A DNA stretch of 64,000 nt, taken from contig SHNJ01000010.1 in NCBI GenBank assembly GCA_004295055.1, positions 2,136 through 66,135 of the forward strand, written 5' to 3'. The translations under genes and the position numbers were made by a program. Origin of the DNA: Alphaproteobacteria bacterium (GTDB lineage: Bacteria; Pseudomonadota; Alphaproteobacteria; SHNJ01). Numbering within the stretch: the stretch's first letter is position 1; every line of letters starts with the position of its first letter. The notes beneath the pieces were generated by a model. The model was given only the letters and a program-made list of their open reading frames with translations, did no database searches and had not been told where the DNA came from. Positions 47,528 to 63,874 of this stretch are shown piece by piece.

Positions 47528-47529
47528 GG

Positions 47530-49280: not shown

Positions 49281-49288
49281 GGTTCCAA

Positions 49289-50826: not shown

Positions 50827-51000
50827 GGTCATGAAATGGCAAGACAAGCACGAATTTGCTGACGCAAAACAAAATAATCCTTCATCATTTTTTTTAAAAT
50901 ATTTTTTGCTGGTAAAATTCGTAATTGTTTTACCGCGCTTTCCTCTTCGATGTGAGAATAAATTACTAAGGAAGGACAATAATTTAACGGATGCACATTA

Positions 51001-51219
51001 TCAGAATTTATGGTCGTACAACTGTTTATACAAATCGTCATCATCAATAGAACCATGATTCTGAATATCTGCGTATTTTTTTTGTAATTCCAAAGCTTGC
51101 TGTAATTCTCTGTTCGCTTGCCGGGTCTGAACATATTTAGATATAAAAACTAAATTGATTATAGATTTAACCACAAGCTGAATGAAATCTATAATAATTT
51201 GCATCCAGCCCATGGCCAA
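51001..51219 (-). CDS. 72-aa phage lysis-cassette small membrane protein (spanin/holin-like).
   Basis: An N-terminal TM helix is followed by a charged coiled region. It lies downstream of the endolysin. Confidence 0.35.
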   Translation of the reverse strand: MAMGWMQIIIDFIQLVVKSIINLVFISKYVQTRQANRELQQALELQKKYADIQNHGSIDDDDLYKQLYDHKF

Positions 51220-51227
51220 GATTTACG

Positions 51228-51410
51228 TTAAGAATTTGAATTGCGCGCGTGCCCAATATTAAGGGCTAATACGTCTACGATTGATTTTACTTTATCTACA
51301 ACATAGTTATCCGTAGACGTTGGTGTTAATGCAGAAATAGCCGATGCCGCAGCAATCACGGATGTAACAACCTGCAATAACAATTCATAATTTTGTAATA
51401 ACCAATTCAT
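51228..51410 (-). CDS. 60-aa phage small membrane protein (holin/antiholin-like).
   Basis: Single TM segment. It lies immediately downstream of the endolysin. Confidence 0.35.
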   Translation of the reverse strand: MNWLLQNYELLLQVVTSVIAAASAISALTPTSTDNYVVDKVKSIVDVLALNIGHARNSNS

Positions 51411-51419
51411 TTGCTCTCC

Positions 51420-52004
51420 TTAAGAATAGGCACGATTTAACCAACCGGTCAAAAATTTATCTTGACCGGGATTTAACCGCGCGATTAATCTGTAAAAACC
51501 CGCTGCTTCCGCACGCAAAGCGGCCAGCAATGCATCACGATTAGCATTATTGGCGGCACGGAAGGTAGCCGTCCCTAATTTTCCATCAATAATAATTTTT
51601 ATTCCTAAAGCCAAAAGCGCCTGTTGTAACAGGCAATGCGCCTGGCTTGGTCCCATATTGACGGCAAGATCGAAGACTTTAGTGGCCAAGCACCAATCGT
51701 TAAATTTACCATATTGAAACTTATTCCAGAATTCCCGCCAATAAAAATCGATAGCCTGATCGCGAGTCAACAATTCCACATCTCGGCGATCAACCATGCC
51801 ATCTTTATTGATGTCCCCTTCCGGAAATAGTTCTAAAAATTTTAGTGATATGCCAAAATTGGTTGGTCCGCCGCGATCGCCTTTTTTATCCGCAAAACCG
51901 CCTTCATGGGAAAGTACGATATCAACAGCCCTTGCGAAACTATCATCAATCACCAATGGCATAAACACCTCATTCTGTCTTGTTGTTCCACATATATTTT
52001 GCAT
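51420..52004 (-). CDS. Phage endolysin: glycoside hydrolase family 108 lysozyme with a C-terminal PG_binding_3 domain.
   Basis: The GH108 motif (VLSHEGGFADKKGDRGGPTNFGIS, with catalytic Glu in HEGG) and the PG_binding_3 region (DFYWREFWNKFQYGKF...KVFDLAVNMG) are present. Confidence 0.85.
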   Translation of the reverse strand: MQNICGTTRQNEVFMPLVIDDSFARAVDIVLSHEGGFADKKGDRGGPTNFGISLKFLELFPEGDINKDGMVDRRDVELLTRDQAIDFYWREFWNKFQYGKFNDWCLATKVFDLAVNMGPSQAHCLLQQALLALGIKIIIDGKLGTATFRAANNANRDALLAALRAEAAGFYRLIARLNPGQDKFLTGWLNRAYS

Positions 52005-52281
52005 AACAATGCTCGATTGCCGCTGGACCTAAATACGATACCGCGGCAACCAACCCAATGGTCGATCGCCCAGTTAAATGGATCCAATCCGCAAGACCAC
52101 TGCCAACAAAACCCATAAATATTGCTACAGGCAGCTCCAACAGCAAATGTACGCCCCAAAACTGCCGCAAGCCTTTTTGTACTAAAAGAACATGCTTTGC
52201 TAATCTTCCTATAAAAGCTGCGCTGAGGGCAGCTGCGAAACTAGTCAAAGTTTCGCGGACAGTGTCTATGTCAAAAATCAT
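51970..52281 (-). CDS. Putative holin (103 aa, 2-3 TM helices) immediately upstream of the endolysin.
   Basis: Hydrophobic helices. Its position overlaps the start of the endolysin by 35 nt. Confidence 0.45.
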   Translation of the reverse strand: MIFDIDTVRETLTSFAAALSAAFIGRLAKHVLLVQKGLRQFWGVHLLLELPVAIFMGFVGSGLADWIHLTGRSTIGLVAAVSYLGPAAIEHCYAKYMWNNKTE

Positions 52282-53144
52282 AGAAATCCAAACAGACTGC
52301 TGCCTAAATTGGCGATCGATTGTAAAGACTGACGCTGTTGCGCCAAGCGGTTATTATAAGAATTCAATTGCCCTGCGTAATTATTGTTAATTGTCCCAAG
52401 CACATCCACGCCAGGAGTTTGAATGCCGCCATAAAACTGGCTTGGTGTAAATTGCTGTCCGCCTAACAAACTGGCCAACTCCTGCAGCATGCTAGACCTT
52501 GCAGAATTGTTCAGGCCCAAGGATTGCAGTTGATCATTAACCTGAGCTTGGCGCGCGGCCATGGCATTGGCAAACAAGCGCTGCTGTTCTGCACGCCCAG
52601 CCGCAACGGCATCTTGTGCCGCCGATTGCAAGGTTTCATTTTCATTGTCAGTTAAAGCATCAAATTCCTTGCCATATGCGTCAGACCCCATAGGAATGCC
52701 TTGATTAACCAAATCATTTTCTCTTTTAGTGCGGCGCTTTTCAAATTCCGGTCGCAGCAAATTGGCGATTTTATTGTAAGTGGCATCTTCTACTTGCTTC
52801 GCATCGCGTGAAAAGTCATCAATTGTTGGAATGCGGTTTATACCAGAAAAATCGATAGAACTCTGAATTTTAGGCAAGTTCAAATTACCTCCGCCTAATA
52901 AGTTTGCTAACTGCAATGAAAGCTGTTCGCTTACTTCGCGGCTTCTTTTCTGATAGGGACTTTCCAACAATTGCACTGCATTATGATCATAATCTGGCAT
53001 GAAATTACCGCCCGCATCATATTGACCGTACAGCAAACTGCCGCCCCCTGGAAAGAATTGATTTAATCTATTGACCTGCGCTTGTGCTTCTGCCGACTGC
53101 ATCGGATCAGGTGCCGCCGGTGCCTTTGGTGCTTTTTTGCCCAT
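52278..53144 (-). CDS. 288-aa phage protein with Gln/Ala/Gly-rich low complexity (possible internal virion or ejection protein).
   Basis: Intact ORF within the structural block. The composition is like pilot or internal-core proteins. No family was recognised. Confidence 0.45.
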   Translation of the reverse strand: MGKKAPKAPAAPDPMQSAEAQAQVNRLNQFFPGGGSLLYGQYDAGGNFMPDYDHNAVQLLESPYQKRSREVSEQLSLQLANLLGGGNLNLPKIQSSIDFSGINRIPTIDDFSRDAKQVEDATYNKIANLLRPEFEKRRTKRENDLVNQGIPMGSDAYGKEFDALTDNENETLQSAAQDAVAAGRAEQQRLFANAMAARQAQVNDQLQSLGLNNSARSSMLQELASLLGGQQFTPSQFYGGIQTPGVDVLGTINNNYAGQLNSYNNRLAQQRQSLQSIANLGSSLFGFL

Positions 53145-53156
53145 ATTAATCCTTAT

Positions 53157-53576
53157 TTAGTTTTTGTTTATCCAAATACATTCAGACTTAATCATGCCGA
53201 AAACTAGTGCAGCTTCATTGCCATACCATTGCCGCAATACGCCTTCCTGCTTAAATCCTAATCTTTTTAAAAAATCTATAGCTTCACTATTATTTTCCCG
53301 CGTTTGCGCAGTTATTCGTTGACATTGCAACTGCAAGAATGGGTATGAAAATATTTTTCCTAGAATTTTTCTACTAGCCCAGTACGGCGAAATAGATGCA
53401 ATAGTTGCCTGAATATCTGTGCCGTAATAATGATTGAATATTACTCCAGCAATTAATTTATCGTCATCAATTATGCCAATAGTGCTGCATGGGCCAAAAT
53501 CGTCGACATCTGGTTGCAATAGATTTATTGCAAATTTAGCGACTAAACTGTCGGCTCCATACAATATTTTCCGCAT
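53157..53576 (-). CDS. GNAT-family N-acetyltransferase (139 aa) embedded in the phage tail region (moron).
   Basis: A GNAT-fold pattern (acetyl-CoA binding region Q/R-x-x-G-x-G/A-like: RITAQTRENNSEAIDFLKRLGF) and a typical length are present. It sits between tail-fibre and internal-protein genes. Confidence 0.55.
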   Translation of the reverse strand: MRKILYGADSLVAKFAINLLQPDVDDFGPCSTIGIIDDDKLIAGVIFNHYYGTDIQATIASISPYWASRKILGKIFSYPFLQLQCQRITAQTRENNSEAIDFLKRLGFKQEGVLRQWYGNEAALVFGMIKSECIWINKN

Positions 53577-53582
53577 TATTTT

Positions 53583-54002
53583 CTAGCTAACAACAATAGA
53601 CACATAATCATATTGGATTCTGTATGCAAAAGTTGCGGCGGATGCCGCTCCGGCATTTTTGCAAGTCACGGCCAGCGATAACGCGGTATTCGGTCCGCAC
53701 TTGAATACGCCTGACGCCGCGGAACGTTCGTTTGTTCCATCGATTTGAATACCCACAGCGGATCCCGTACTGCCGGAACTGGAATATCCCAGTGCCCCGG
53801 GAATCGTAATTGCCGCGTGGTTTAAATTATTGGTTGATGCGGTAGATGCGGTAACTTGGTAATTTACAATAAATATGGCATTTGCTGTGTTGGGTGTGGT
53901 GAAGACACTGATCCCGCCGCTGCCAATACCATTGGCCGTAGAAACTGAATTTGTAAAAGTTCCGGTAACCACGTTTGAAGAACCGGCTGTTGTAATTGGC
54001 AT
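53583..54002 (-). CDS. 139-aa Gly/Ser/Thr/Ala-rich phage tail-fibre-associated protein.
   Basis: The composition is typical of fibre tips. It lies adjacent to the tail fibre gene. Confidence 0.45.
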   Translation of the reverse strand: MPITTAGSSNVVTGTFTNSVSTANGIGSGGISVFTTPNTANAIFIVNYQVTASTASTNNLNHAAITIPGALGYSSSGSTGSAVGIQIDGTNERSAASGVFKCGPNTALSLAVTCKNAGAASAATFAYRIQYDYVSIVVS

Positions 54003-54011
54003 TACTATCTC

Positions 54012-55010
54012 CTAAATTTGCAATAATGAAAAAATTAATGCGGATTCATCCGCATGTTGGCGTGTTGCCATAGGCGATGATGTAAAACTGGCTACCCCGC
54101 CTGTCGTAAAACTCAATCCTGCTCCTGCTGTGGAAGGCAATGCATTAGGCATCGTCAAATCAAAACTGGCCGTAATACTGTCAGGTGCCTTTACACGAAC
54201 AACTTGTACGCCATTAGCCGCCAGTTCTTGCAATTGAATGCGACCGGCATCTCCCGGATTAATTCCAATTGAGCCAAAGGTGGAACCTGGCGATTGCCAG
54301 GTCAGTAATCCCGTTCCATCATTCGTCAAAGTTGTACCGGCACTGCCCTGAATATTCGGTAAAGTAACCGAATAACCGGTACCGATTGCATCTGGTGCAC
54401 GAAAAGTAATCTGTTCCGTTCCATTTGTGGCCAATTCTTTCAGTCGAATAGCGCCAGCTTGACCAGCCCCTACACCATCCGGTGCAAAAGTTTTGTTGCT
54501 AATATCTTGCATGGCGCTATCCAAAATTATAGTTCCGGAACTATCCGGAATAACAACGGTTCTGGCCGCAGAAAGACTTTGCGGCTGCAACACCGATTCA
54601 TAACCGCTGTTTTTAAAAGCAGCACCGGAGGATTCTCTGATAATTTGCGTACCGTCTTGTAAAACTACATTACCACTGTAATCCGGTAACGTATAAGTAC
54701 GGGTTGCAGTCAATGGGCCGGTCTGTAAATCACCATAATTTGTGGCTCCATTAAATAATCTTACCCCACCAGAGACGAAGGCTTGCAGCCACCGCAAACT
54801 GGCGGATCCAAGATTATAAGTTGCATCCACATGAGGTTTAAAGTCCGCTGTCGGCTTGCTTTCATTATTTTTGGTCAAGCAAGCCTGAATCCCTGCGGCC
54901 AAATTGTCATCTTCCTGATCGTGCAGCGAAGCTACAATTTTAATTCCATTATTCTTGTCTGTTACCCAATTTCGTAAGCGCGTGTATATACCGCTGCCAT
55001 TCCAAGGCAT
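54012..55010 (-). CDS. Phage tail fibre protein (332 aa).
   Basis: Repetitive Gly-rich beta-type sequence (TFRAPDAIGTGYSVTLP... / VKAPDSITASFDLTMP internal repeat). It lies downstream of the tail tubular genes. Confidence 0.6.
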   Translation of the reverse strand: MPWNGSGIYTRLRNWVTDKNNGIKIVASLHDQEDDNLAAGIQACLTKNNESKPTADFKPHVDATYNLGSASLRWLQAFVSGGVRLFNGATNYGDLQTGPLTATRTYTLPDYSGNVVLQDGTQIIRESSGAAFKNSGYESVLQPQSLSAARTVVIPDSSGTIILDSAMQDISNKTFAPDGVGAGQAGAIRLKELATNGTEQITFRAPDAIGTGYSVTLPNIQGSAGTTLTNDGTGLLTWQSPGSTFGSIGINPGDAGRIQLQELAANGVQVVRVKAPDSITASFDLTMPNALPSTAGAGLSFTTGGVASFTSSPMATRQHADESALIFSLLQI

Positions 55011-55035
55011 TCTAATCTCCTAATTTTACCGATGT

Positions 55036-56547
55036 TTATACGTATCCAGCTGGTTCGAACAAATATTCGAGACTGAACCATTTACAGGACTGCTGACCTA
55101 AAGCGGCGATTACCCGAGTAGATACATTAAGCCCAATTCCGGCGACCGATACCCATGGGCGGATTATCGTATTTTCGCCTGCCCAGGCACTAAGATCCCA
55201 AGGACTATTATCCCATTCCGGCGCATTGCCGGAAAAATTGGATACACTATAAGTTGCGGCCGGGGTTTCAAAATCAAATGCCAGCGCAAGCGAAATTGGT
55301 AAGGCCCCTTCACTTTCAAAAACCGGTTTCAACGCCGTAAATCGTTTAATTTGTCCACGAGAGTTTAAATAATTCCATGCAGTCTGTGCGGAAAATGTAA
55401 TGGGATTGCCGTTATCGTTATGTCCTTCATCTGCCAAGTACACATTCCCGTCTATGCCTCCAAAATATAATTTATCATTATACAGGGACCAGCATATTCC
55501 ATTTAGACCTTCGAATTTGGTCCATGTATTGGTCAGAGTATTAAAAATATGCTGATCGAATCGCGTTTCCGATACTGGCACATTAAATAGTAAATAATTG
55601 CCCTGCGGATACATCAAAGCCTGCCAACCAAAATTACCGGCATATAAATTGGCCGCTTCTTTGACTGCGCCATTAATTTTATCGGAAATGGCACGGGCAC
55701 TGGCAGCGCGCCCGGCATCCAACACTTTAGATAACGGCACATATCCATCTTTGGTCATTACCACTACTTCAGAGCCTACCTTTAAGGCTCCGCGGGAAGA
55801 TAGCGGTGCGCCAAGGCGGAAAATACCGACCAACGCCCAGTCGGCAGCCGAACCAGGATCGCTGCCTTGATAAATTATTACATCCCCGCTCGACATAATG
55901 AAAATGGCCAGATCATCTACACCGTCCCCGCCATCCACAGTCCAAGATTGAATTGCAATCAAATTCCCGCCAAATCCGGAAACACGGCCTAGTGGAAATT
56001 TATTTAAACTGCCGCCTAGCGCACCAGTGGCGCTGTACCAGAAATCCTGGCTGTCTTTTTCCCAAAAATAGGATCGATTTTTAAATGTAAATACGCCAAT
56101 CAAATTATTGATGGTCAAATCTGTGCCTGAAACTGTCAAGGCAGAAACTGCCATTCCATCATACATTTGTGGCGGATCAATACCATTGACTAGCGCCATT
56201 CGTGCACCGCCACTGGCATCGTCAAATTGCGAAAATGACCAGCGATCATTTTGAAATCCACTGGCAAGGGCGATACCAACCGCGCCGGGTGTGGAAATAT
56301 CGTAAATAGCATTATTGCTAGCGGCGATAAACTTGCGCGATGCTCCGGCATTAAATTCCGCTAATGTTTCCACTGGTCCAGGCATATCCGATGCATAAGT
56401 CACATACCCTTTGCGGGTTTGCACCCGGCCAACAGTTGGAAACCAATTGGTTAATATCACCGCATCTTCCGGAGGCATTTGATCCAAAGCGTCTCGCGTG
56501 TTCCACCCGCCAACAGGAGACACTATTTGTATTGCTTTTGCTGTCAT
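55036..56547 (-). CDS. Phage tail protein (503 aa), podovirus tail tubular protein B-like.
   Basis: Its size and its position after a ~200-aa tubular-A-like gene match the podovirus arrangement. Beta-rich sequence. Confidence 0.55.
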   Translation of the reverse strand: MTAKAIQIVSPVGGWNTRDALDQMPPEDAVILTNWFPTVGRVQTRKGYVTYASDMPGPVETLAEFNAGASRKFIAASNNAIYDISTPGAVGIALASGFQNDRWSFSQFDDASGGARMALVNGIDPPQMYDGMAVSALTVSGTDLTINNLIGVFTFKNRSYFWEKDSQDFWYSATGALGGSLNKFPLGRVSGFGGNLIAIQSWTVDGGDGVDDLAIFIMSSGDVIIYQGSDPGSAADWALVGIFRLGAPLSSRGALKVGSEVVVMTKDGYVPLSKVLDAGRAASARAISDKINGAVKEAANLYAGNFGWQALMYPQGNYLLFNVPVSETRFDQHIFNTLTNTWTKFEGLNGICWSLYNDKLYFGGIDGNVYLADEGHNDNGNPITFSAQTAWNYLNSRGQIKRFTALKPVFESEGALPISLALAFDFETPAATYSVSNFSGNAPEWDNSPWDLSAWAGENTIIRPWVSVAGIGLNVSTRVIAALGQQSCKWFSLEYLFEPAGYV

Positions 56548-56557
56548 AAATTTGTCT

Positions 56558-57271
56558 TTAGAAATTCGCTTCTGGTAAATTTAATGCAATATCTTGCATA
56601 CAATTAGACTGTAAATTTAACTTGGGCATTCCACCATCACGGGCTATAGCTTGCGAGACTTCGCGTTCATATTCCTGCAACGCCATGGCGTAATCCAATC
56701 CTTTTGCCAGCAAAAACCTCCAGACCACACCCATAATCACAAGATTTTCCGGCAGTATAGATTCATCACTATCGTCTTGCCAAACATTGCTGGTTTGTGT
56801 GCCTGCTAAATTGCGCACCCAATTTTGGGAAACATATTCCAATATCAACGCATCGCCATTTATGGGTGGCACAGGATCAATATAAATCTGATTTATAATA
56901 TCAGCACCGCGCTTAATACGAAAATTTCTTTTAATGCCCACCGATCCAATTAAACCGGATTTTTTTTGTTGCCATTGTTGCGGACTTAATGGTCCGCGCA
57001 TGGATTGGTATGCGCTGCGATCCCATAATGTATTGTCGATCAATCGATCAAAATCGTCTGGTAAATCATAATTTTCTTGGCCACCGACTGTAGTAATATC
57101 ATATTCTTTCTGCAGCATGGTCCAATTATGTCGCCGTGCCAATATTTTGCCTTCCCGATTGCACAGCGCCAGGATTTGCCGCGCCGTAGCATCGGTATTA
57201 CCATATAAAAAAGCGGGCGGTTCAAAACCAACCTCATACGCCACATTCTGCGCAATGGATAATAAATTCAT
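56558..57271 (-). CDS. Phage tail protein (237 aa), tail tubular protein A-like.
   Basis: Position and size only. There is no motif-level confirmation. Confidence 0.45.
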   Translation of the reverse strand: MNLLSIAQNVAYEVGFEPPAFLYGNTDATARQILALCNREGKILARRHNWTMLQKEYDITTVGGQENYDLPDDFDRLIDNTLWDRSAYQSMRGPLSPQQWQQKKSGLIGSVGIKRNFRIKRGADIINQIYIDPVPPINGDALILEYVSQNWVRNLAGTQTSNVWQDDSDESILPENLVIMGVVWRFLLAKGLDYAMALQEYEREVSQAIARDGGMPKLNLQSNCMQDIALNLPEANF

Positions 57272-57288
57272 AATAATGTCCCTTTAAT

Positions 57289-57690
57289 TTATTCGGGAAG
57301 CGTTTGCCACCAGTCAATACGCTGTTGTGCAGTATCGGGGTTGCCATCTTCGTTGCCGTCAAATTCCGGCGCTTGAGCCTCTAACCAGCGCCAACGAATA
57401 TTGTCATCTGCTTCAAGGCCCTGCTGCAAAGGGCGGAATAATAAATCATTAATCCAGTCTCTTTGTTGCTGCCATGCTTCGTCTCCGTTTGCTACTTTGA
57501 TCAAACGCTCGTTACCGCTCCATGAAAATACTTCGGAGAGCTCGGAACCAGGAGAGTTTAAAGTGTGTCTAAGAGCACATTCATCTCTGATTGATTGTAT
57601 GTCCGCGTGATTGTTGCCGATTAAAAAATACCAGTTTTTTGTCACTGTCCTTCTCCCGATACTGGTAAATCCAGTACCATTTGATTGCAT
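57289..57690 (-). CDS. 133-aa phage hypothetical protein.
   Basis: ORF within the co-oriented structural block. It overlaps the upstream gene by 49 nt, so its true start may be internal. Confidence 0.4.
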   Translation of the reverse strand: MQSNGTGFTSIGRRTVTKNWYFLIGNNHADIQSIRDECALRHTLNSPGSELSEVFSWSGNERLIKVANGDEAWQQQRDWINDLLFRPLQQGLEADDNIRWRWLEAQAPEFDGNEDGNPDTAQQRIDWWQTLPE

Positions 57691-58454
57691 GGGCCTGCGA
57701 CAGCGCTAAGTGCCCCAACTACCGCGAAATTTCCTCCGAAACCATCGTTAATTCCATAGTCAACAACGGAGTTCTTCAAATATATTATTGGGGCACTACC
57801 GCTAGCCCACCCACTATTGCGGCTATACCGCAAATCACAAGTTGGTTTCTTACCGGCAGTAATAAATGCGCGCCTATTATTATCCAAACTTATATCAAGA
57901 AAATTTGAATTGCTCAGATAGAATCCTGCCAAATCGCCGTTAAAACGATGGGAAGCATTTGCGCCCCCAATACTGTGAAAGCTGTCCGTATAATCAATAT
58001 TAAATGGGCCAGATGCATCACTAACGATTGTTGTGCTTAGCGCATCATTGACATAAATCATCCCTATTTTATTTCCTGCCGAGTAATTAGTATCCCACGA
58101 TGCAATTATGTGCGTATAGTCTGTTGTTACCGCCGGCCCAAAATTAGCTACGGTTTCAAAAATAAACTGGTCTGTTCCATTACTGGCCTGTAATTGAACA
58201 CGGATTTTATAAGCACTTGTTCTATAAATACGCACGTGCTGATTCTGCGTACTGTAAATGTCGCGATCAACAGCCCCTATTCCATTTAATCTGAACCAAA
58301 AGCTAATAATGCCTTGAGGTCCATCCAAATTTGCCGATAAATCCGTACTGACTTTTAGGTAATCGTTTGTGCCATCAAAATTTGCGGCATTAGCCAGACA
58401 ATTAACGGCACAATATGGATTAGATAATCGATGTTGGGTAATAAACATGATCAA
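57642..58454 (-). CDS. 270-aa phage protein with a concanavalin-A-like lectin/glucanase (LamG-like) fold signature. It may be a virion adhesin or receptor-binding protein.
   Basis: The beta-sandwich-type sequence FDGTNDYLKV...GIISFWFRL...GDLAGFYL resembles LamG-like domains. Confidence 0.5.
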   Translation of the reverse strand: MIMFITQHRLSNPYCAVNCLANAANFDGTNDYLKVSTDLSANLDGPQGIISFWFRLNGIGAVDRDIYSTQNQHVRIYRTSAYKIRVQLQASNGTDQFIFETVANFGPAVTTDYTHIIASWDTNYSAGNKIGMIYVNDALSTTIVSDASGPFNIDYTDSFHSIGGANASHRFNGDLAGFYLSNSNFLDISLDNNRRAFITAGKKPTCDLRYSRNSGWASGSAPIIYLKNSVVDYGINDGFGGNFAVVGALSAVAGPCNQMVLDLPVSGEGQ

Positions 58455-58778
58455 TTACAATATGCATTCGCTTACATTCAATTTACCGCCCCCAGTATCT
58501 TGAATAACGGCAATCTTCTCCCCTGGTGAAATTTCAGTAAATTCAACGACGTTTGCCGGTAAAAATGTGCTTGTACTGGTTGCAGTTGGATTTGTACCCA
58601 ATGCAATGCGGCAAGCAGTTGTGGATACCAGCCGGATAATTTTGTTTGGTGTTTGACCTGCGGTGCCAATTGCGGCGGACTGCGCACTGCTGGCGCCAAC
58701 CGTCACGTCTTGCGATGTACTTAGCTTAACAGTGGGCAGGAAATTCCCGCCATTTAATATCAATGCCATTATGGTCAT
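58455..58778 (-). CDS. 107-aa phage structural hypothetical protein.
   Basis: ORF in the structural block with Ala/Thr/Gly-rich composition. Confidence 0.4.
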   Translation of the reverse strand: MTIMALILNGGNFLPTVKLSTSQDVTVGASSAQSAAIGTAGQTPNKIIRLVSTTACRIALGTNPTATSTSTFLPANVVEFTEISPGEKIAVIQDTGGGKLNVSECIL

Positions 58779-58788
58779 CCTCTTTCTC

Positions 58789-59388
58789 TTATTCAGTTTT
58801 CAATTTTAATTTTTCTTTCTTTTTATCTTGGATCAGGCTTTTTAATTCTTTGATCTGAGATAAAAAGAACTCATTTTTTTGATGCAATTCTGCGATTTGT
58901 TCCTGCAATCTTAGATTTTCGGCGGCAATACGTTCTACCGCACCATTATCTTTGGATGCTTCCAAGAATGCTTTTGCCTTAGCCTGCAATTCACGCGCAC
59001 CCATACCGATGCGTTGCAACCCTTGGTCCGATAGTTCCGCCAATACTTCTACGGTTGGTACGTGCATGGCGCGCAATTCCGCGATCTGAGATACCGACAA
59101 GGCTGGCCATTGCTCTAGTGGGGTGCCTTCTACCGGCTGCGCCGCATTTTCTGTATAAGCTTTCCATTGATCCGCCCAGCGCGCACGGTCATCATCGCGA
59201 ACTTTCCGATCAATAATTGTGTTCTTATCTCCAGGAATATGTATCTGGATATAATCTTCTTCACGAAAAATCGGCCGACCTTGCTGTTCACTGGCCAATT
59301 TATCTTGTACCGCGCGCCTGTAAAACATGGGCACCAAAATATCTTTGGTGGCATTAGAAGTCTTAGGTAACGATAATTCCGGCAGCAT
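58789..59388 (-). CDS. 199-aa phage hypothetical protein with a C-terminal coiled coil.
   Basis: ORF in the structural block. The Lys/Glu-rich C-terminus LQEQIAELHQKNEFFLSQIKELKSLIQDKKKEKLKLKTE looks coiled-coil. Confidence 0.45.
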   Translation of the reverse strand: MLPELSLPKTSNATKDILVPMFYRRAVQDKLASEQQGRPIFREEDYIQIHIPGDKNTIIDRKVRDDDRARWADQWKAYTENAAQPVEGTPLEQWPALSVSQIAELRAMHVPTVEVLAELSDQGLQRIGMGARELQAKAKAFLEASKDNGAVERIAAENLRLQEQIAELHQKNEFFLSQIKELKSLIQDKKKEKLKLKTE

Positions 59389-59397
59389 TTATTGGTC

Positions 59398-59442
59398 CTT
59401 TCAAGAAAAGGACAGAGGATGAAACCATCCTCTGTCTTAGAT
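59398..59442 (-). terminator. Intragenic-cluster rho-independent terminator (gacagaggatg-gtttc-atcctctgtc followed by a U-rich tract on the minus strand) after the capsid and decoration genes.
   Basis: 10-bp perfect stem seen in the sequence. The minus-strand transcript follows it with cttttcttg. Confidence 0.65.
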
Positions 59443-59443
59443 A

Positions 59444-59914
59444 TTAAGCGTTCACGGTGCCGCGAATCACCGATGGACTCACGGAAGCGCGCAATGTTTG
59501 CGTGGCATTACTGCCACTGGTCGTCGTTGCGCAAACACCATGAACCATGGTTTGCGATGTCGACACATGACTGAGATGCCCGGCCGTTCCAGTAGTATAC
59601 AATGGAACGTTTACCGTGGTGTTGGCGAGCATGTTGCCGCGCACACCGACGCCACGCCGTGCCACCCACCCCCAATTGCCTGATGTAAATGCCGCTTGGG
59701 CAAAGCCCACGATCGGCAACGTATCGGCCAGAGTTTTGGTAATGGCTTGCGCGGAAAAGCTGGAATCAACCGCGACACAATCGCCACTGTTGATTGTTGC
59801 ACCAGCCTGAACATAAATATATTCAGCGCCAGTGCTGTCCATGCCCACACTACCCGCCTTATGAAGGGGTGTAGCGGAACGATCAGTCGGATCAAGACCT
59901 ATGATATAACTCAT
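59444..59914 (-). CDS. 156-aa phage head-associated protein (possible decoration or minor capsid protein).
   Basis: Lies immediately downstream of the capsid gene. Gly/Thr/Ala-rich beta-type sequence. It is followed by a terminator. Confidence 0.45.
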   Translation of the reverse strand: MSYIIGLDPTDRSATPLHKAGSVGMDSTGAEYIYVQAGATINSGDCVAVDSSFSAQAITKTLADTLPIVGFAQAAFTSGNWGWVARRGVGVRGNMLANTTVNVPLYTTGTAGHLSHVSTSQTMVHGVCATTTSGSNATQTLRASVSPSVIRGTVNA

Positions 59915-59930
59915 CTTTGTTCTCCTATAA

Positions 59931-60905
59931 TTACGGAATCAACACGCCTTGCAGAGATGCATTCGACAAAGTCAAATTGCCTGCAAAAGCGATCAGTTTT
60001 ACCATCGCATCTTGATTCATCGAGAAGCGATCCGGTTCTAGCGGAACAAAATTGCGATCTTTGTGCGGACGGAAATAAATGTAATTCGTGTTTAAGAAAT
60101 ACATTTTATTCGCCGGCGCGCCGCCACCGAGGCCGCCATCGAACATCACATCGGCATTCATGAATTTCAGGCTGGTAAAGCCCAAATTCGCTTCTTTTTC
60201 CGAGGTGACGCGTTGAATCGCCTGCAAGCTTTCCCAATAAAAGCGAAACATGTTATTGTCCGCCACAATCAGATCAGGCGCGTCATTGCCACGCGAGCAA
60301 GCCAGATACAAACGGTTCATCGCCGTTTGAATATTGCTGGTCGATGGGGCGCCCAAACCGGCATTGGACATATCCAACACTTGATTGCGCCAGAATGACC
60401 AGGAAGCGCGGTTGATACCGCCGACGGTGCCGGTAGTCGGATCATCCGCGACCAGCAATTGCAAGCCGCCGATTTGTTTGCCGCTGTCGGCTGTGCCGTC
60501 CGAATAAACGTCCAATGAGATGTTGTTAATCAAAGTGCGTTCAGCATTATCGATACGTTTTTCCAATAATGGAATAATCGCTTCTTCGCCGCTATTTTGC
60601 AGCATTTCGAGACCAGAAATACTGACCACAACCGCTGCTTGACGAATATCAAATTCCGCCGCCGTAAAAACATCGGACGGTTGGATATTTAATACTTCGT
60701 AACCTGTATAGCGGCGGAAAGTGGTATTTTCCGCGTATTCTAATTCTTCAACGATGGTACGGCCACCTGCAAAGGGGCGCATTTTTCCTTTTTCACGCAA
60801 GCGATTCAACAATGCGTTGTTTTTGCTTACGTTGTCGGACAAAGCCCCAGAGCGATTGCGCAACGTCGTTGTAATAATCTCCGATAGATTTGGAGAAATT
60901 GGCAT
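59931..60905 (-). CDS. Phage major capsid protein (324 aa).
   Basis: Position after portal and scaffold. The size and composition are typical of podovirus major capsid proteins. There is an RBS-like ggag upstream. Confidence 0.65.
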   Translation of the reverse strand: MPISPNLSEIITTTLRNRSGALSDNVSKNNALLNRLREKGKMRPFAGGRTIVEELEYAENTTFRRYTGYEVLNIQPSDVFTAAEFDIRQAAVVVSISGLEMLQNSGEEAIIPLLEKRIDNAERTLINNISLDVYSDGTADSGKQIGGLQLLVADDPTTGTVGGINRASWSFWRNQVLDMSNAGLGAPSTSNIQTAMNRLYLACSRGNDAPDLIVADNNMFRFYWESLQAIQRVTSEKEANLGFTSLKFMNADVMFDGGLGGGAPANKMYFLNTNYIYFRPHKDRNFVPLEPDRFSMNQDAMVKLIAFAGNLTLSNASLQGVLIP

Positions 60906-60967
60906 AATCTACTCCTTAAATAGTTTAATGATAATGTGCGTGGAGTGGATGAGCGCTGCTCTGCCCG

Positions 60968-61903
60968 TTACGCTTGCGCGTTACGGTAAGCCGCTTCCAA
61001 TTCTTCGCGTAGCGATTGCGCGGGTTTTCTTTGTACCGCATTGGCGCCCGGGGTGCCGTAAATGCTGGCCCCGGCCCGTTTTGCGATTTCAACCTTAGCC
61101 CGATCTTCGTCCTGTTTCCTTTTTTCTGCCGATTTTAAATGGCCGGACAAAAATTCTTCGCGCAGATTGGGATGAGCCCAACCGGCGCGTTCATACAAGT
61201 CTTTTAGATCGGGCTGTTTACCCTGCAACAAATCCGCATGGGCCAGCATAGTGATATGCGGCAATAATGTATCGAAATGCGGATACATGTTTTTGCCGGT
61301 AACGTCCTTGGCTTCAATCATATCTTTGATTCTTTGCTGGCCGATGCGGATGGCGCCGGCGGCTTGTTGCATTTGTTGCTGCGCCAAAACGCCTTTTAAT
61401 TGATCAATTTCTTTTTTAATATCGGATGGTTCGTTATTTTTAACTGGCGGCACAGCTTCCGCATTATATCCATATAAATCGGAAATATGTTTGATGGTCG
61501 CCTGCGGGTTTCTTTTTAAATTGCGGTAAACGCCAAACAATTCTGCCACCGCTGCGGCCTCGTCGACCCCTGCGCGCGATAAGTCGTCTTTGTACTCATC
61601 AAATATCTTTTGCAAATCTCCGTATCGTTTGCGTTCTTTGGAAATATCGGTGGTCTTTTTGGTGTAATCCGCTTCCATGGATTTGTGCCGGCGCATAACC
61701 CAGGATTTGGTTCTGTCATCCAGGCTTGAAAAAGTCGCTTTATCCTCATCCGACCAATGTTCCGGCGCGGTGGCATAGGCTGTTTTTTCATTCTGAAACG
61801 CCGTTTTTAAATCGGCCGCAACGCTGCCTTTTGGATATGGATTATTATCTGAAGTCGCCGTACCATTATTTTCAGGCACGGAATTTTGTTCCGAAAGATT
61901 CAT
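60968..61903 (-). CDS. Phage scaffolding protein (311 aa, highly charged and alpha-helical).
   Basis: It lies between portal and capsid. The Lys/Glu/Gln-rich helical sequence is typical of scaffold proteins. Confidence 0.55.
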   Translation of the reverse strand: MNLSEQNSVPENNGTATSDNNPYPKGSVAADLKTAFQNEKTAYATAPEHWSDEDKATFSSLDDRTKSWVMRRHKSMEADYTKKTTDISKERKRYGDLQKIFDEYKDDLSRAGVDEAAAVAELFGVYRNLKRNPQATIKHISDLYGYNAEAVPPVKNNEPSDIKKEIDQLKGVLAQQQMQQAAGAIRIGQQRIKDMIEAKDVTGKNMYPHFDTLLPHITMLAHADLLQGKQPDLKDLYERAGWAHPNLREEFLSGHLKSAEKRKQDEDRAKVEIAKRAGASIYGTPGANAVQRKPAQSLREELEAAYRNAQA

Positions 61904-61924
61904 TTTTTTCTCCGGTTAGGTCAA

Positions 61925-61960
61925 AATAAAACCGGCTGTTTTTTAAACAGCCGGTTTACA
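61925..61960. terminator. Hairpin terminator (aaaccggctgttt-tttaa-acagccggttt) between the portal and scaffold genes.
   Basis: 12-bp stem with A and T runs on both sides. It may attenuate the portal-to-scaffold transcript. Confidence 0.6.
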
Positions 61961-62045
61961 GAATTTTTTGATTGTATCGAATCGTACCACAATTTTTTTC
62001 ACAAATCAATAGATCTGGAAAATATTTTTAAAAAAAATTAGAAAT

Positions 62046-62237
62046 TTAATCTCCAACTTCGATGCACCCATGTTGCCGCAAATGCGCGCGGTGTGCGGCG
62101 CGGCCATCGATGGTCTCGCCGGTAACCATGCTTTTATATGGTTTCAAATCGGCAATTATATTCGGACTGTTTGGGATCATATCTTCTTCATTTTTCAATT
62201 GCAGCTTTCCATTGCGATAAACATAGGTTTTGCGCAT
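62046..62237 (-). CDS. 63-aa phage hypothetical protein between the portal and scaffold genes.
   Basis: Small ORF whose start is adjacent to the portal stop. No homology evidence. Confidence 0.3.
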   Translation of the reverse strand: MRKTYVYRNGKLQLKNEEDMIPNSPNIIADLKPYKSMVTGETIDGRAAHRAHLRQHGCIEVGD

Positions 62238-63874
62238 TACGTTGGACTTTCAATTTGGCCCAATGATTCCAGCGACGATTCCAATTCCCGTCCGATTTTG
62301 AATCCCCGAGCGCCGAACAATAACATCGATCGTGCCACCGATAATGGCAATGCGCCTGATTGTACCAATGGCGCGGCTTCTTTGACGAATCCGGTAACCG
62401 CGTTTAAAAATTCGATGCGGGTTTGTTTTTCCTGGATTTCATCCATAGCAATGGTGGAATCGGTTTCGATATCCAAACGCCAGTGGAAAATCTGTTCGTT
62501 CCGAAATAAATCCATCATTTCCGGCACGACCGCGAGGCCCGTCATAGACGACAAGGTTTCTGGCGAGAAATGTTCCGCCATCACTTCGGCCATTATACGA
62601 ATCAAATCGCGGCTGAACCGCGCCACCGATTTTTGTCGTTCGGATAAACGTAGCGTCGCAAAACGGCCTTTTAATTGCTGCGCGGTTGCGGTTTCCGATG
62701 CCACCGTTGCGCCGCGCAAAATATCGGCGATGCCGGTGATTTCATAAAGATCGTTTTTAACTCGGTCGCGCGCCTGATATAATTCGCGTAATACCTGCAC
62801 CATGCGTTCAATCGGCATCCAGGCGACAACCCCATCGAGGCCGCCCTTTTGTGCAATCGCCGACCATTGATCGACCGGGATCAATTGGCTTTCTTCGCCA
62901 AATTCGCTTAACAAACGCTGAATTGGTTCTGCCGAGGCATCATACACGCCTCGCAGACGAATCATGCGGGACAATGCTGTGATACGCGATGTTAAAACAT
63001 CCAATTCTGTTGCTTGATCTTGATACAACAAATAATCCGGTACCGGCAGCATGTCATCGCTGGTCGTCGTGGCCAGCAGCGGTTGTGGGCATGGGAAAAA
63101 TCCGGACAAACGCAATGGATCATCCTGAATTTCCAGAATCTGTGATTTTTTGCGATTCGCGCCATGCGTTAACCACAGTACCTGGCGAGAGGATTTATCC
63201 CAAATTTCCCAAATCATCGCCTTGCCAGCTTGCGCCTTGATATCGGCACTGCCTTCGCAATCATAATCGATATTCCAATCATCTACCTTGTCGCCGAATC
63301 TGTTTTTCATTTCTTCGCGCGATAAGTAATTGCGGAATGCAACCCAATCGACATCATTCCAACGCCGCGCCGGTGCATGCAGAAAATCTTTCCAATGCAC
63401 ATAATCGCAAATGGCTTTCTCGCTTTTTAATTTTTGAATCTCAGTTTGTTCCTCATCGGCCGAATAGGCCGATTCAAATTCCGGCACATATCGAATGCGG
63501 GCAACACCGCGCCCAGCCAACAAATAATCCTGCACACAAGAACGCATGACCGTATCGAAATCATAGACATCGATATTGGTGGTCAGCGCGCGTTCCAGCA
63601 CCATCGATGCCTGACGTGTGAATGGATCGTTATCTTTATATCTTCGTTCGATTTGCGGTTTCGGCGCGCTGTAATACAAAGCCGGTTTCAAGGTTTCGAC
63701 ATTCGACCACAAAATATTGAATTTACCTCCGCGATCAGCATCGCCCCGTTCATCACGGTACCTTCGAACAATTTTATCGGCCCTGGCGCGATAAGTGGCT
63801 TCGCGCTTTTCAGCTTTATCCAAAACCGCCAACCAATATCCCAATAATGGGTTATTTGTATCTTTTTCGATCAT
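62237..63874 (-). CDS. Phage portal (head-tail connector) protein, 545 aa.
   Basis: Its size and its position at the head of a portal-scaffold-capsid module match a portal. The acidic C-terminus is typical. The upstream packaging genes presumably lie beyond the window. Confidence 0.65.
   Translation of the reverse strand: MIEKDTNNPLLGYWLAVLDKAEKREATYRARADKIVRRYRDERGDADRGGKFNILWSNVETLKPALYYSAPKPQIERRYKDNDPFTRQASMVLERALTTNIDVYDFDTVMRSCVQDYLLAGRGVARIRYVPEFESAYSADEEQTEIQKLKSEKAICDYVHWKDFLHAPARRWNDVDWVAFRNYLSREEMKNRFGDKVDDWNIDYDCEGSADIKAQAGKAMIWEIWDKSSRQVLWLTHGANRKKSQILEIQDDPLRLSGFFPCPQPLLATTTSDDMLPVPDYLLYQDQATELDVLTSRITALSRMIRLRGVYDASAEPIQRLLSEFGEESQLIPVDQWSAIAQKGGLDGVVAWMPIERMVQVLRELYQARDRVKNDLYEITGIADILRGATVASETATAQQLKGRFATLRLSERQKSVARFSRDLIRIMAEVMAEHFSPETLSSMTGLAVVPEMMDLFRNEQIFHWRLDIETDSTIAMDEIQEKQTRIEFLNAVTGFVKEAAPLVQSGALPLSVARSMLLFGARGFKIGRELESSLESLGQIESPT

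Follow-up and report, generated by a model that had tools for sequence, protein, structure and literature searches.

A podovirus-derived head-tail-lysis cluster fixed in alphaproteobacterial chromosomes is a candidate for a new kind of gene transfer agent

The window analysed here, a 64,000-nt stretch of alphaproteobacterial DNA, carries about 20 co-oriented head, tail and lysis genes between positions 50794 and 63874 of its minus strand, on which all features described below lie unless noted otherwise. They form part of an element of about 17.7 kb whose remaining 4.5 kb or so lie beyond the window end, its first gene being a small regulator just outside the window. The window's own genome carries the same upstream part, as L009 and L099 are 100% identical to the window where they overlap it. 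Family searches bear out the podovirus-type head-tail-lysis module proposed in the preliminary description, and the portal-scaffold-capsid order and ORF sizes hold as well, with portal and capsid assigned through PHROG families. The portal (545 aa, 62237-63874) matches phrog_12082 (E 7.5e-184), is 35% identical to the portal p45 of Myxococcus phage Mx8 and has a dN/dS of 0.043 relative to L001. The 63-aa ORF behind it (62046-62237) found no match in Pfam or PHROG searches and is syntenic and intact in L001, L050, L042, L037, L043 and L002 (dN/dS 0.26). The 311-aa product of the next gene (60968-61903, dN/dS 0.14) is probably the scaffolding protein, given its position between portal and capsid; it, too, matched no Pfam or PHROG family, and it shows weak homology (24-83%) to the syntenic gene of relatives. 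The major capsid protein (324 aa, 59931-60905; phrog_9953, major head protein, E 2e-130) has a dN/dS of 0.012 and is 87-99% conserved among the chromosomal clusters. A 156-aa virion protein (59444-59914; phrog_29386, virion structural protein, 7e-8) is syntenic with and equivalent to Mx8 p49, gave no PDB relative in a profile search and may serve in capsid decoration.

The tail genes open with a 199-aa protein carrying a C-terminal coiled coil (58789-59388; phrog_20268, 2e-28), the equivalent of Mx8 p50, which lies between the head genes and the adaptor in all Mx8-like loci. A 107-aa protein (58455-58778) follows that matched no family; homologs turned up only in L001, L002, L050, L042, L037, L043 and L053, so that chromosomal clusters including that of the Dongiaceae have it, whereas it was not detected in the phage relatives compared. 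The next ORF (57642-58448), 270 aa as annotated and about 268 aa from the start suggested by relatives, encodes the least conserved structural protein (65.7% identical to L001). It combines an N-terminal FDGTNDYL motif and a conserved C terminus with a variable centre, has two paralogs in L002 and has no family or PDB match; this hypervariable protein is a candidate for receptor binding. Its gene is also the end point of four metagenome contigs. A 133-aa ORF without a family match (57289-57645) probably yields a protein of about 118 aa, the size of its L001 homolog, with which the alignment begins at residue 16.

The 237-aa head-to-tail adaptor (56558-57271; Pfam SU10_adaptor, 8e-12; phrog_6013, tail protein, 1e-54) corresponds to Mx8 p51, and the 503-aa protein after it (55036-56547) is predicted to be the nozzle or tail hub. 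Its AF2 model (pLDDT 87, pTM 0.87) matches the Pa223 tail (9nwi_Y, E 3e-20, TM 0.73) and P22 gp10 (TM 0.62-0.65) in Foldseek searches of the PDB, with further matches to Sf6 gp8, SU10 and T7 gp12. The two had been described as tubular A- and B-like, which the adaptor family and the nozzle fold now support. The label "amidase" that phrog_5107 attaches to the 503-aa protein is a misnomer. The 332-aa product at 54012-55010 is a probable tail fibre. Over its first 57 residues it matches the N termini of phrog_13989/14100. In phage L051 these families are represented by a 218-aa protein in the corresponding slot, with a tail-fibre-family gene two positions further on. By tblastn the fibre is also 41% identical to a 373-aa protein located at the L023 end. 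A 139-aa protein (53583-54002) adjoins the fibre gene here and in L001, L048, L050 and L053 and has no family match. In phage L051 the slot is taken by an ORF that corresponds in size, 139 aa, and in position. Then come a GNAT-like acyltransferase, likewise 139 aa (53157-53576; phrog_4470, 8e-36), and a 288-aa virion protein, p288 (52278-53144; phrog_6121, 2e-18), equivalent to Mx8 p54, whose stop overlaps the holin start. The acyltransferase corresponds to Mx8 p53 by PHROG family and position and occurs in most Mx8-like tail modules compared; Pfam GNAT families score below cut-off on it, and its homolog in phage L046 matches Acetyltransf_1.

The nearest relatives are Bradyrhizobium phage ppBjS10J-1 (capsid 63% identical to its MCP), Mx8 (55% to p48) and the Brucella Tb/Pr group, all placed, together with Ruegeria 45A6, in an Mx8/Pr-like podovirus lineage (Hardies et al., 2023, PMC10386132). 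The T7-like affiliation proposed earlier thus gives way to an Mx8/Brucella-Pr-like module with a P22-type nozzle. That the lineage is poorly described proved correct: no phage record gave a megablast match, SU10_adaptor is the only Pfam family above gathering cut-off among the head and tail proteins, and portal, capsid, adaptor and nozzle have no PDB sequence relative.

The lysis cassette is as previously described, with a LydA-type holin of 103 aa (51970-52281; Pfam Phage_holin_3_3, 3.4e-13), a GH108 and PG_binding_3 endolysin (51420-52004; Pfam 2.5e-20 and 5.8e-12) and two tiny membrane proteins. The endolysin ORF is 194 aa long, and a likely start at 51962 gives 180 aa, as in its homologs. 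The first tiny protein (60 aa, 51228-51410; phrog_9685, 1.4e-14) has one hydrophobic segment and is conserved in L001, L050 and L048. The second, of about 70 aa (72-aa ORF, 51001-51219), aligns with counterparts in L001 and L050 and resembles an i-spanin in its N-terminal TM segment and charged helix. The cluster extends further downstream than first described, through an overlapping, o-spanin-like lipoprotein ORF (50829-51134; phrog_26778, 1e-12), in which four lineages all keep the lipobox Cys and two other Cys, to a terminal intrinsic terminator, Tc (50794-50826; AAAAAACCCAGC...GCUGGGUUUUU; fold z -2.96).

Both hairpins reported inside the cluster are present. Ta (61922-61957; fold z -4.15), a 13-bp stem at 61957-61929 followed by a U tract at 61928-61922, ends about 10 nt ahead of the scaffold RBS, and Tb (59411-59436; fold z -3.66), with an 11-bp stem, follows the pair of genes for the capsid and the 156-aa protein. 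Terminator-like sites are not enriched in the region (17 found against 17.0 expected by chance), so the case for these hairpins rests on stem length and on positional conservation in relatives. At the Ta position L001, L050, L042, L037, L043 and the Dongiaceae relative L002 have a GC-rich hairpin and U tract with different stems; the Tb position is kept, again with different stems, in L001, L050, L042, L043, L002 and the free phage L051, and in L037 with a weak U tract. Directly upstream of Ta lies a conserved promoter-like motif, P2 (61966-62021), made up of TTCCAGAT at 62020-62013, a -35 element TTGATT (62009-62004), a -10 element TACGAT (61986-61981) and a second -10-like hexamer TACAAT (61976-61971), with invariant blocks in an alignment of six lineages. 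An nhmmer search with an HMM built from nine of the aligned instances found the motif twice in L001/L036, L042 and L043 and once in L037 and L050, while the free phages gave no match. An element has two copies in those lineages for which the scan covered both positions and detected the motif at each, the second promoter and terminator unit lying ahead of the packaging genes, and the upstream half of the motif co-varies between the two copies of one genome.

The hairpins had been taken to attenuate transcription for stoichiometry control. This fits Tb, but not Ta, which follows a promoter-like motif of its own and as a plain attenuator would lower scaffold and capsid relative to portal, the wrong direction. 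A promoter and leader-terminator unit read by an antiterminator would be a better account of the hairpin between portal and scaffold. The proposed antiterminator is o165, the regulator at the head of the element. Phage UFOVP413 encodes a homolog of this family, whose profile retrieves 230 proteins. Of the 70 sampled, 56 match Pfam DUF6456 and no other family, although single-sequence matches stay below the Pfam cut-off (14-24 bits against 26.3). The regulator would thus belong by affinity to the DUF6456 (GafA) family used by known alphaproteobacterial gene transfer agents (GTAs), DUF6456 being the GafA domain (PMC9638019). Within GafA, DUF6456 may represent the GafY-like half or the GafZ-like one. 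In the Caulobacter agent CcGTA, GafZ acts as an antiterminator through which transcription gets past internal terminators (PMC11150451). At the sequence level the regulator shows no similarity to Q families, and its predicted fold resembles Q21 only non-significantly (E>1, TM 0.39-0.43).

The cluster is chromosomally fixed between nadCBA and tRNA-Thr-dcd-murA in divergent hosts, with nadCBA adjoining it in at least four divergent lineages and tRNA-Thr-dcd-murA in three. A tRNA-Thr gene (GGU; 50486-50560, plus strand) marks a conserved boundary at the lysis end, where it is also found in L001/L054 and L048. Behind it lie dcd, a murA-type gene of the EPSP-synthase family, DUF2948, UPF0262 and an LMW phosphatase (46491-49843, minus strand, by Pfam), an order shared with the host flank of L048, where Dcd is 86% and the murA-type protein 72% identical. 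On the other side, nadC-nadB-nadA lie 2.6-5.8 kb upstream of TerL in L036, L042, L037/38/39 and L043, whose TerL proteins are 62-69% identical to that of L001, and both flanks occur together on the single contig JACCDG012077496.1. The genes flanking the upstream side differ in the Dongiaceae relative (L002/L040), which indicates that some mobility or rearrangement has happened. NadABC and the concatenated element proteins give the identical four-taxon topology, and element and host protein distances correlate with r=0.95 at an element/host distance ratio of 0.87, one flank being represented by four lineages and the other by three, all of them from metagenomes. Selection is purifying, with dN/dS of 0.012-0.26 in the 13 of 19 genes for which dS could be estimated (0.6 up to about 2.2); dS is saturated in the other six, where dN is 0.075-0.33.

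The gene set is conspicuous for what it lacks. Integrase, replication and repressor or immunity families were detected neither in the flanks nor in the small upstream ORFs of the window, L036, L042, L037, L043 and L099, and a search for a tRNA-derived att repeat found none. These small ORFs, which have no recognisable function, might hide novel recombination or replication functions. In addition, the p288 homolog of free relatives is separated from the lysis genes by genes for proteins of about 400-700 aa (in L051, 412 and 684 aa; in Mx8, p56/p57, of which p56 falls in phrog_917, "released upon infection"), whereas p288 is followed directly by the holin in the window, L001, L002, L048, L050 and L053. 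The absence of these two large ejection proteins could mean that the particles are unable to deliver DNA.

We consider it rather more likely than not that the locus is a domesticated, vertically inherited particle cluster of podoviral origin, most plausibly a GTA with DUF6456-controlled expression. Judged from its genes, it is a candidate for a new kind of such agent. Its ancestor would have been a temperate podovirus of the Mx8/Brucella-Pr lineage that retained the packaging, capsid, adaptor, nozzle, fibre and lysis genes and lost the integrase, replication and immunity genes along with the two large DNA-ejection proteins. Expression would probably be all-or-none. The DUF6456 protein, encoded about 4.5 kb beyond the window end, would act at two promoter and leader-terminator units, one ahead of the packaging genes and one at 62021-61922 ahead of the genes for scaffold, capsid and the 156-aa protein, allowing RNA polymerase to read through the leader terminators and Tb into the tail and lysis genes, as GafZ does in the Caulobacter agent. 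Particles, presumably filled with host DNA by a headful mechanism, would be set free when holin, endolysin and spanin-type proteins lyse the cell.

It is possible, if clearly less probable, that the cluster was domesticated for something other than transfer, be it a PBSX-like defective-phage particle that would kill or bind competitors yet inject no DNA, or a device for programmed lysis and DNA release. The fixation and selection evidence applies equally here, the loss of ejection proteins fits particles that adsorb without delivering DNA to the cytoplasm, and an antagonistic role fits the hypervariable putative receptor-binding protein. However, purifying selection acts strongly on terminase, portal and scaffold (dN/dS 0.04-0.14; TerL 62-71% conserved), indicating that DNA packaging matters, and the regulator family is that of known GTAs. 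A PBSX-like role is compatible with both points, since PBSX also packages DNA.

An inducible prophage, as initially assumed, is very hard to reconcile with the locus. The element adjoins a tRNA gene, its virion and lysis gene set looks complete and free phages with related modules exist (L051, L046), but against an ordinary temperate prophage of a poorly described podovirus lineage at tRNA-Thr stand its total size of about 17.7 kb, the searches that found no att repeat and no integrase, repressor or replication gene, and the housekeeping genes on both sides in divergent hosts, with parallel protein divergence. A helper-dependent, satellite-like mobile element that relies on a co-resident phage for integrase, replication and ejection proteins would explain why exactly these functions are missing, and related free phages occur in the same kinds of samples; yet both flanks are fixed, the cluster co-diverges with host genes, it encodes its own tail and lysis genes and no att sites were found, making this quite improbable. 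We likewise give very little credence to a decaying remnant without present function. Early genes and ejection proteins are gone, and reverse-strand insertions separate TerS, TerL and portal in the window/L001 lineage, but all 19 genes are intact in every lineage examined, the window, L001 and L050 showing no disruption, dN/dS is low while synonymous sites are near saturation, and regulatory motifs and terminators are conserved.

The cluster has its gene order in common with Mx8 (Myxoctovirus) and the Mx8/Pr-like lineage. Homology is seen by tblastn for the portal, capsid, p50-like, adaptor, nozzle and p54-like proteins, and PHROG family and position link the p49-like and GNAT proteins to their counterparts. 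Mx8 differs in being a temperate phage of 49.5 kb that carries integrase, replication and immunity genes as well as the ejection proteins p55-p57, none of which were detected in the element, while the element has three extra genes before the adaptor, a fibre between nozzle and GNAT and the promoter/leader-terminator units. Uncultured UFOVP413-like contigs (L051, ~35 kb) are the closest free-phage relative found, with a nozzle 60% identical and fibre genes between nozzle and GNAT. They also share a p288 homolog and a LydA-type holin, a terminator follows their capsid/decoration pair, and a DUF6456-like o165 homolog is encoded upstream of packaging. L051 differs by the two large proteins that precede its holin and by an HTH_3 protein encoded downstream of lysis, and has neither an intergenic promoter/terminator unit before scaffold nor a leader terminator after the o165 homolog. 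Late control in lambdoid phages (Q/pR'/tR') likewise combines a regulator gene with a promoter that lies shortly downstream of it, has another -10-like hexamer a few bases past the -10 and is followed by an intrinsic terminator, and more terminators inside the operon, whereas the element has two such units and a regulator whose fold is not significantly similar to Q21. PBSX-type defective phages of Bacillus are clusters of phage origin at a fixed chromosomal place, whose particles are set free by lysis of the producing cell. The element's absent ejection proteins would agree with particles that may be unable to inject DNA, but PBSX has a long contractile tail and belongs to another host phylum.

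The type I agents RcGTA and CcGTA (Rhodogtaviriformidae) are built from unrelated structural genes, RcGTA being siphovirus-like, and no RcGTA-type families were detected in the element, which is short-tailed with adaptor and nozzle and has lysis genes within the cluster. Its head is probably not miniaturised: with a capsid 55% identical to that of Mx8 (49.5 kb), it is probably large enough for the whole 17.7-kb cluster, so that the classical mark of a GTA, a head too small for its own genes, would probably not apply. What the element and these agents have in common is a head-tail cluster of about 14-18 kb that lacks integrase and replication genes and is vertically inherited, a regulator of the GafA (DUF6456) family, and terminators inside the cluster, which in CcGTA are bypassed by antitermination (PMC9662315, PMC9638019, PMC11150451).

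The phage-derived genes form an unbroken run of some 20 tightly packed, co-oriented ORFs that occupies the minus strand between 63874 and ~50794, and their sizes agree with those given in the preliminary description. The cluster continues past the end of the window on two contigs of the same sequencing study, L009 and then L099, which overlap that end at 100% identity and add ~5.7 kb. The added stretch holds a ~320-aa ORF on the reverse strand, the 477-aa TerL, a pair of small ORFs also in reverse, a probable TerS of 109 aa and two ORFs of 99 and 161 aa, the latter called o165 (L099 1246-1731). Measured from o165 as far as the final terminator, the cluster is ~17.7 kb long. Within the window it encodes a portal (phrog_12082, E 7.5e-184), a major capsid protein (phrog_9953, E 2e-130), a 156-aa protein recognised as a virion protein by profile search, a 199-aa conserved protein (phrog_20268), a head-to-tail adaptor (Pfam SU10_adaptor, 8e-12), a 503-aa protein assigned to phrog_5107, a GNAT-like protein (53157-53576, minus strand; phrog_4470, 8e-36), a 288-aa virion protein (phrog_6121), a LydA-type holin (Pfam Phage_holin_3_3) and an endolysin (Pfam Glyco_hydro_108 and PG_binding_3). 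The 63-, 311-, 107-, 270- and 133-aa proteins, the first 139-aa protein and the small upstream ORFs have no Pfam or PHROG match. The lysis cassette had been described as holin, endolysin and two tiny membrane proteins; the Pfam families found support the holin and the muralytic enzyme. A spanin-like pair had been overlooked. Past the endolysin lie a gene for a 60-aa protein, one for a ~70-aa protein with an N-terminal membrane segment and a helix (candidate i-spanin) and an overlapping, out-of-frame lipoprotein ORF (candidate o-spanin) whose lipobox cysteine is invariant in four lineages. The latter two are probably a spanin pair, as judged from their sequence features; the related chromosomal cluster L048 has no detectable i-spanin homolog. 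The terminator Tc (50826-50794) closes the cluster, 230 nt from a tRNA-Thr(GGU) gene (50486-50560). The host region of the window has another tRNA gene, for tRNA-Phe(GAA) (40003-40077, minus strand).

The preliminary description placed this module in a poorly described lineage of T7-like podoviruses. The first part of that assignment is fair. Megablast of the whole module against phage records gave no nucleotide match. No head or tail protein save the adaptor belongs to a Pfam family above the gathering cut-off, although the holin and endolysin do match Pfam. Searches against PDB sequences, with single sequences of portal, capsid, adaptor and nozzle and with profiles of the 270-, 288-, 156- and 199-aa proteins and o165, returned no usable match; the first four have no sequence relative among solved structures. 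The T7-like class itself does not hold, since no Pfam T7 family is matched and the nearest relatives are Mx8-like. By protein, the closest is Bradyrhizobium phage ppBjS10J-1 (capsid 63%, portal 37.5% identity), followed by the Myxococcus phages Mx8 and Mx9, with 55% identity in the capsid and 35% in the portal (tblastn, full length, Mx8 p48/p45); Stenotrophomonas phage BUCT555 and, more distantly, the Brucella Tb/Pr group are also related. Gene order is collinear with Mx8 p45-p54 (portal, small ORF, scaffold, capsid, p49, p50, adaptor, nozzle, GNAT, p54), with insertions in the window of the 107-, 270- and 133-aa genes and of the fibre and 139-aa genes. A GNAT-like acyltransferase directly follows the nozzle, or the fibre genes behind it, in most Mx8-like tail modules compared, a position common to free phages and chromosomal clusters (the window, Mx8 p53, L046, L051, L007).

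The identity of the 503-aa protein bears on the same issue. Its AlphaFold model (pLDDT 87, pTM 0.87) matches solved podovirus nozzle or tail-hub proteins, best that of Pa223 (E 3e-20, TM 0.73) and further those of Pan3, VP1, P22 gp10, Sf6 gp8, SU10 and T7 gp12. Because of these matches, the protein is taken as a beta-propeller nozzle, the 'amidase' label of phrog_5107 is dropped and the earlier naming of the adaptor and the 503-aa protein as a tubular A- and B-like pair proves correct. Target-normalised TM-scores are 0.65-0.72 against the 445-520-aa class (Pa223, P22 gp10) and 0.39-0.41 against T7 gp12, which puts the nozzle in the P22 gp10 size class; a T7-like phage should have a gp12-type nozzle of ~790 aa and the gp14-16 core proteins, of which there are none. 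The module is a packaging-head-tail-lysis cluster of the 'Mx8/Pr' podovirus lineage, which Hardies et al. 2023 (PMC10386132) derive from an ancient ancestor shared with P22, as they do LUZ24/phiEco32 and T7.

The cluster departs from that lineage after the 288-aa gene. Most canonical Mx8-like loci, where the sequence is long enough, have downstream of their homolog of this gene (Mx8 p54) a small gene followed by one or two that encode proteins of ~400-700 aa; Mx8 p56 falls in phrog_917, a family annotated 'released from the phage upon host infection', and the nearest free phage (L051, UFOVP413-like) has 412- and 684-aa proteins at that position. In the window and in L001, L002, L048, L050 and L053 the holin gene comes directly after the 288-aa gene, and in the window the stop codon of the one overlaps the start codon of the other. 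Neither a homolog of the large ejection or internal virion proteins nor an ORF of that size was found in any part of the 64-kb window. What the chromosomal clusters do carry, between the 199-aa gene and the adaptor, is three additional genes (107, ~268 and ~118 aa). The ~268-aa protein (57642-58448, minus strand) is the most variable structural protein, with 66% identity to L001 and a variable centre; there are two paralogs in L002 and an extra 1.6 kb before the homolog in L053, and four independent metagenome contigs (L037, L038, L042, L043) end inside or at this gene. Such a pattern suggests population-level hypervariability, and the protein behaves as expected of a receptor-binding protein.

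Is the cluster simply a prophage? An ordinary temperate prophage should carry integration, immunity and replication genes between attachment sites. No integrase, repressor or immunity protein, or replication protein was detected at any of the chromosomal loci compared, with the caveat that several of their small ORFs belong to no recognised family, and on the nadA side no att repeat derived from the tRNA was found beyond chance-level matches; we reject this explanation. Free-phage relatives, by contrast, have the early functions to be expected: the 41-kb contig L046 encodes RecT, YqaJ, SSB, NinB, NinG and Terminase_2, and the ~35-kb contigs of L051 an HTH_3 protein. The location is also shared. 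In the closest public relative (L001, identical to L054, and L036; ~79% nucleotide identity to the window) a single 96.6-kb contig has nadC-nadB-nadA and an oxidoreductase gene directly upstream of the cluster and tRNA-Thr downstream. The nadCBA flank is found again in three more lineages (L042, L037/38/39 and L043), where TerL is only 62-69% identical, and the tRNA-Thr-dcd-murA-DUF2948-UPF0262-LMWPc flank of the window is repeated in L048, whose nozzle is 72% identical. At least six lineages, in a small sampling, thus have the locus in common.

Repeated independent integration at this site is very unlikely. Distances between concatenated NadA, NadB and NadC and between concatenated element proteins (TerL, portal, scaffold, capsid and the 156-, 199- and 107-aa proteins) give an identical four-taxon topology for L036, L042, L037 and L043 and are nearly proportional (r=0.95, element/host ratio 0.87). 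Between the window and L048, identities are 86% (dcd), 72% (murA-type protein) and 72% (LMWPc) in the host flank and 72% (nozzle), 67% (fibre) and 66% (288-aa protein) in the element. A dead relic, the outcome that the preliminary description set against its own reading, is excluded because all 19 genes compared between the window and L001 are intact, and dN/dS is 0.012-0.26 in the 13 for which it could be estimated; dS is saturated in the other six. The cluster is therefore fixed at one chromosomal locus, co-diverges with host genes and is under purifying selection. Values of dS over the window interval 51420-63874 are bimodal (0.6-1.0 from portal to the 156-aa gene; 1.8 or more, or saturated, from the 107-aa gene to the lysis genes), and either lineages have exchanged the head half more recently or codon constraint on it is stronger. 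Base composition (GC 45.5 in the element versus 47.3% in the host; GC3 42.5 versus 47.5%, with overlapping ranges) does not tell element from host and so is not counted as evidence, although it would fit long residence.

The lineages differ in what surrounds these genes. The ~320-aa reverse ORF between TerL and portal, which has no family match (window 63875-64000 onwards; L009 1-551; L099 4735-5487; L001 5849-6829), and the two small reverse-strand ORFs between TerS and TerL, with apparent signal peptides in L001, occur in the window/L001 lineage only; in other lineages TerL and portal are adjacent. The interval from nadA to the regulator (L036 5469-6369 and its equivalents in L042, L037 and L043) holds a conserved Pro-rich lipoprotein of ~200-235 aa and a conserved reverse-strand ORF of 74-77 aa (50-70% identical), which may belong to host or element. 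A cluster in a Dongiaceae MAG (L002/L040; JBFXCK010000005.1), with a capsid 85% identical, has another upstream flank without nadCBA, ~4.6 kb of extra genes between TerL and portal, including two DUF6973 proteins, and another ~3.2 kb separating the scaffold gene from the 63-aa homolog; this cluster, too, has leader terminators and no large ejection proteins. The records behind L036, L046, L053 and L057 (JACCDG01, JACCDY01, JACCDT01 and JACCDP01) are very large assemblies whose contig numbering exceeds one million, in an accession series that resembles eukaryote or bulk-sample projects, and their hosts may be eukaryote-associated or abundant contaminants.

How the cluster is controlled is suggested by its hairpins. 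The two noted earlier, Ta between the 63-aa ORF and the scaffold gene and Tb after the capsid/156-aa pair, are real: they have GC-rich stems of 13 and 11 bp with U tracts (z -4.2 and -3.7), and hairpins with quite different stem sequences occur at both positions in every related cluster. A counterpart of Tb is also present in the free phage L051. They had been read as setting the stoichiometry of the gene products. Tb may indeed attenuate transcription of the tail genes, but stoichiometry cannot be the sole explanation, because Ta lies downstream of a promoter-like motif of its own and upstream of the genes for the most abundant proteins. Ta is placed ~13 nt downstream of this motif, P2, and ~10 nt upstream of the scaffold ribosome-binding site; P2 consists of TTCCAGAT, N3, a -35 element TTGATT, 17 nt, a -10 element TACGAT, 4 nt and a second -10-like TACAAT. 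A second copy of the motif, again with a U-tract hairpin and a ribosome-binding site, precedes the 99-aa ORF, TerS and TerL in every lineage, and for the window's own genome it lies on L099. A profile of the motif finds two copies each in L001/L036, L042 and L043 and one each in L037 and L050, recoveries that are partly by construction as the profile was built from nine of these instances; it finds none in free phages or Mx8. Leader terminators exist at both positions in the Dongiaceae cluster and at neither in L051. The upstream half of the motif varies between genomes and is identical in both copies within a genome, as co-evolution with a genome-specific DNA-binding factor would produce. Q/GafZ-type antitermination would call for a promoter followed by intrinsic terminators in front of the operon and within it, and the cluster shows this arrangement.

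Immediately upstream of the first of these units, in all clusters, is the o165 gene (161-170 aa), with homologs in phage UFOVP413 (L051) and the Dongiaceae cluster. Pfam DUF6456 matches three of the six members co-linearly, at 23.6, 17.8 and 14.2 bits, below the cut-off of 26.3. A family profile retrieved 230 proteins from 1.84 billion representatives, and among 70 sampled, 56 match DUF6456 alone (best E 9e-13); the names of these matches are uninformative, and tblastn of o165 against cultured phages gave no match. The o165 model (pLDDT 72) has no significant PDB match in Foldseek, and the highest, non-significant TM-scores (0.39-0.43) are to six chains of the Q21 transcription antiterminator, a resemblance that we treat as a lead only. 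GafA, which activates RcGTA directly, is annotated as DUF6456 (PMC9638019; PMC9765227). Caulobacter has a split GafA, made up of GafY and GafZ; the latter, an anti-terminator, binds the GTA promoter between its -35 and -10 elements and enables RNA polymerase to pass the terminators within the GTA cluster (PMC11150451).

The cluster lacks self-propagation genes and large ejection proteins, and its two promoter-terminator units accompany a probable DUF6456-family gene. That it is domesticated, vertically inherited and functional we regard as highly probable; that it is a true GTA is a serious possibility, a little short of an even chance. We propose tentatively, and with rather less than even confidence, that it represents a GTA family domesticated independently from a podovirus ancestor of Mx8/P22 type, whose hosts are uncultured and mostly freshwater Alphaproteobacteria, with a GafA/GafZ-family antiterminator acting at two promoter/leader-terminator units and DNA delivery across the outer membrane only. 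The DUF6456-like protein would serve as activator or antiterminator, keeping a lethal cluster silent unless it is made; particles would then be produced and released by lysis. The terminase, of the Pfam Terminase_6N family, would package host DNA, by a headful mechanism that we assume by analogy with P22-type enzymes; Mx8 is a generalised transducer (PMC10386132).

The main rival is a PBSX-like or other function of particles and lysis. Delivery of DNA to other cells is uncertain because the ejection proteins are missing: without the inner ejection proteins, DNA may reach only the recipient's periplasm. In the GTA reading, the particle would bring DNA only across the outer membrane and leave uptake to the recipient, as in RcGTA. 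Endogenised caudovirus-like genes and vertical inheritance with co-diversification, the genomic GTA criteria of PMC9662315, are both present here, in a small sampling of lineages. The capsid is 55% identical to that of the 49.5-kb Mx8, which suggests a full-size head, and a head too small for the GTA gene set, here ~17.7 kb, is probably not a feature of the cluster.

If the GTA reading is true, GafA-type control would predate, and be common to, GTAs with unrelated structural genes, and the regulator family would by implication be an ancestral phage late-gene antiterminator. A second alphaproteobacterial cluster, with unrelated structural genes, would matter in three ways if it has the hallmarks of GTAs: vertical inheritance, absence of genes for self-propagation, purifying selection, and control by the GafA family with terminators inside the cluster. 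Domestication of phages into particle-producing host organelles would prove to be recurrent and able to start from podoviruses; DUF6456 proteins would be indicated as a general family of phage late-gene antiterminators from which GafA and GafYZ were recruited; and nature would have provided a test of how a podovirus particle performs when it has no ejectosome. A practical warning is that prophage-finding tools and human readers alike will label such clusters prophages.

Among papers found by full-text searches that linked GTAs with podoviruses, Mx8 or vertically inherited podovirus-type prophages, no title or abstract describes such an element. We know of no GTA with genes traced to a short-tailed phage. 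Few GTA groups have an established genetic basis (PMC9662315 names three). Both GTAs and defective-phage particles are already known; a podovirus-derived one under GafA-family control would be a new variety. By Pfam and PHROG families and by tail type, its structural genes are not homologous to g1-g15 of RcGTA: no RcGTA-associated family is matched, and the RcGTA-like type I GTAs (Rhodogtaviriformidae) have a siphovirus-type tail, the present cluster an adaptor plus a nozzle.
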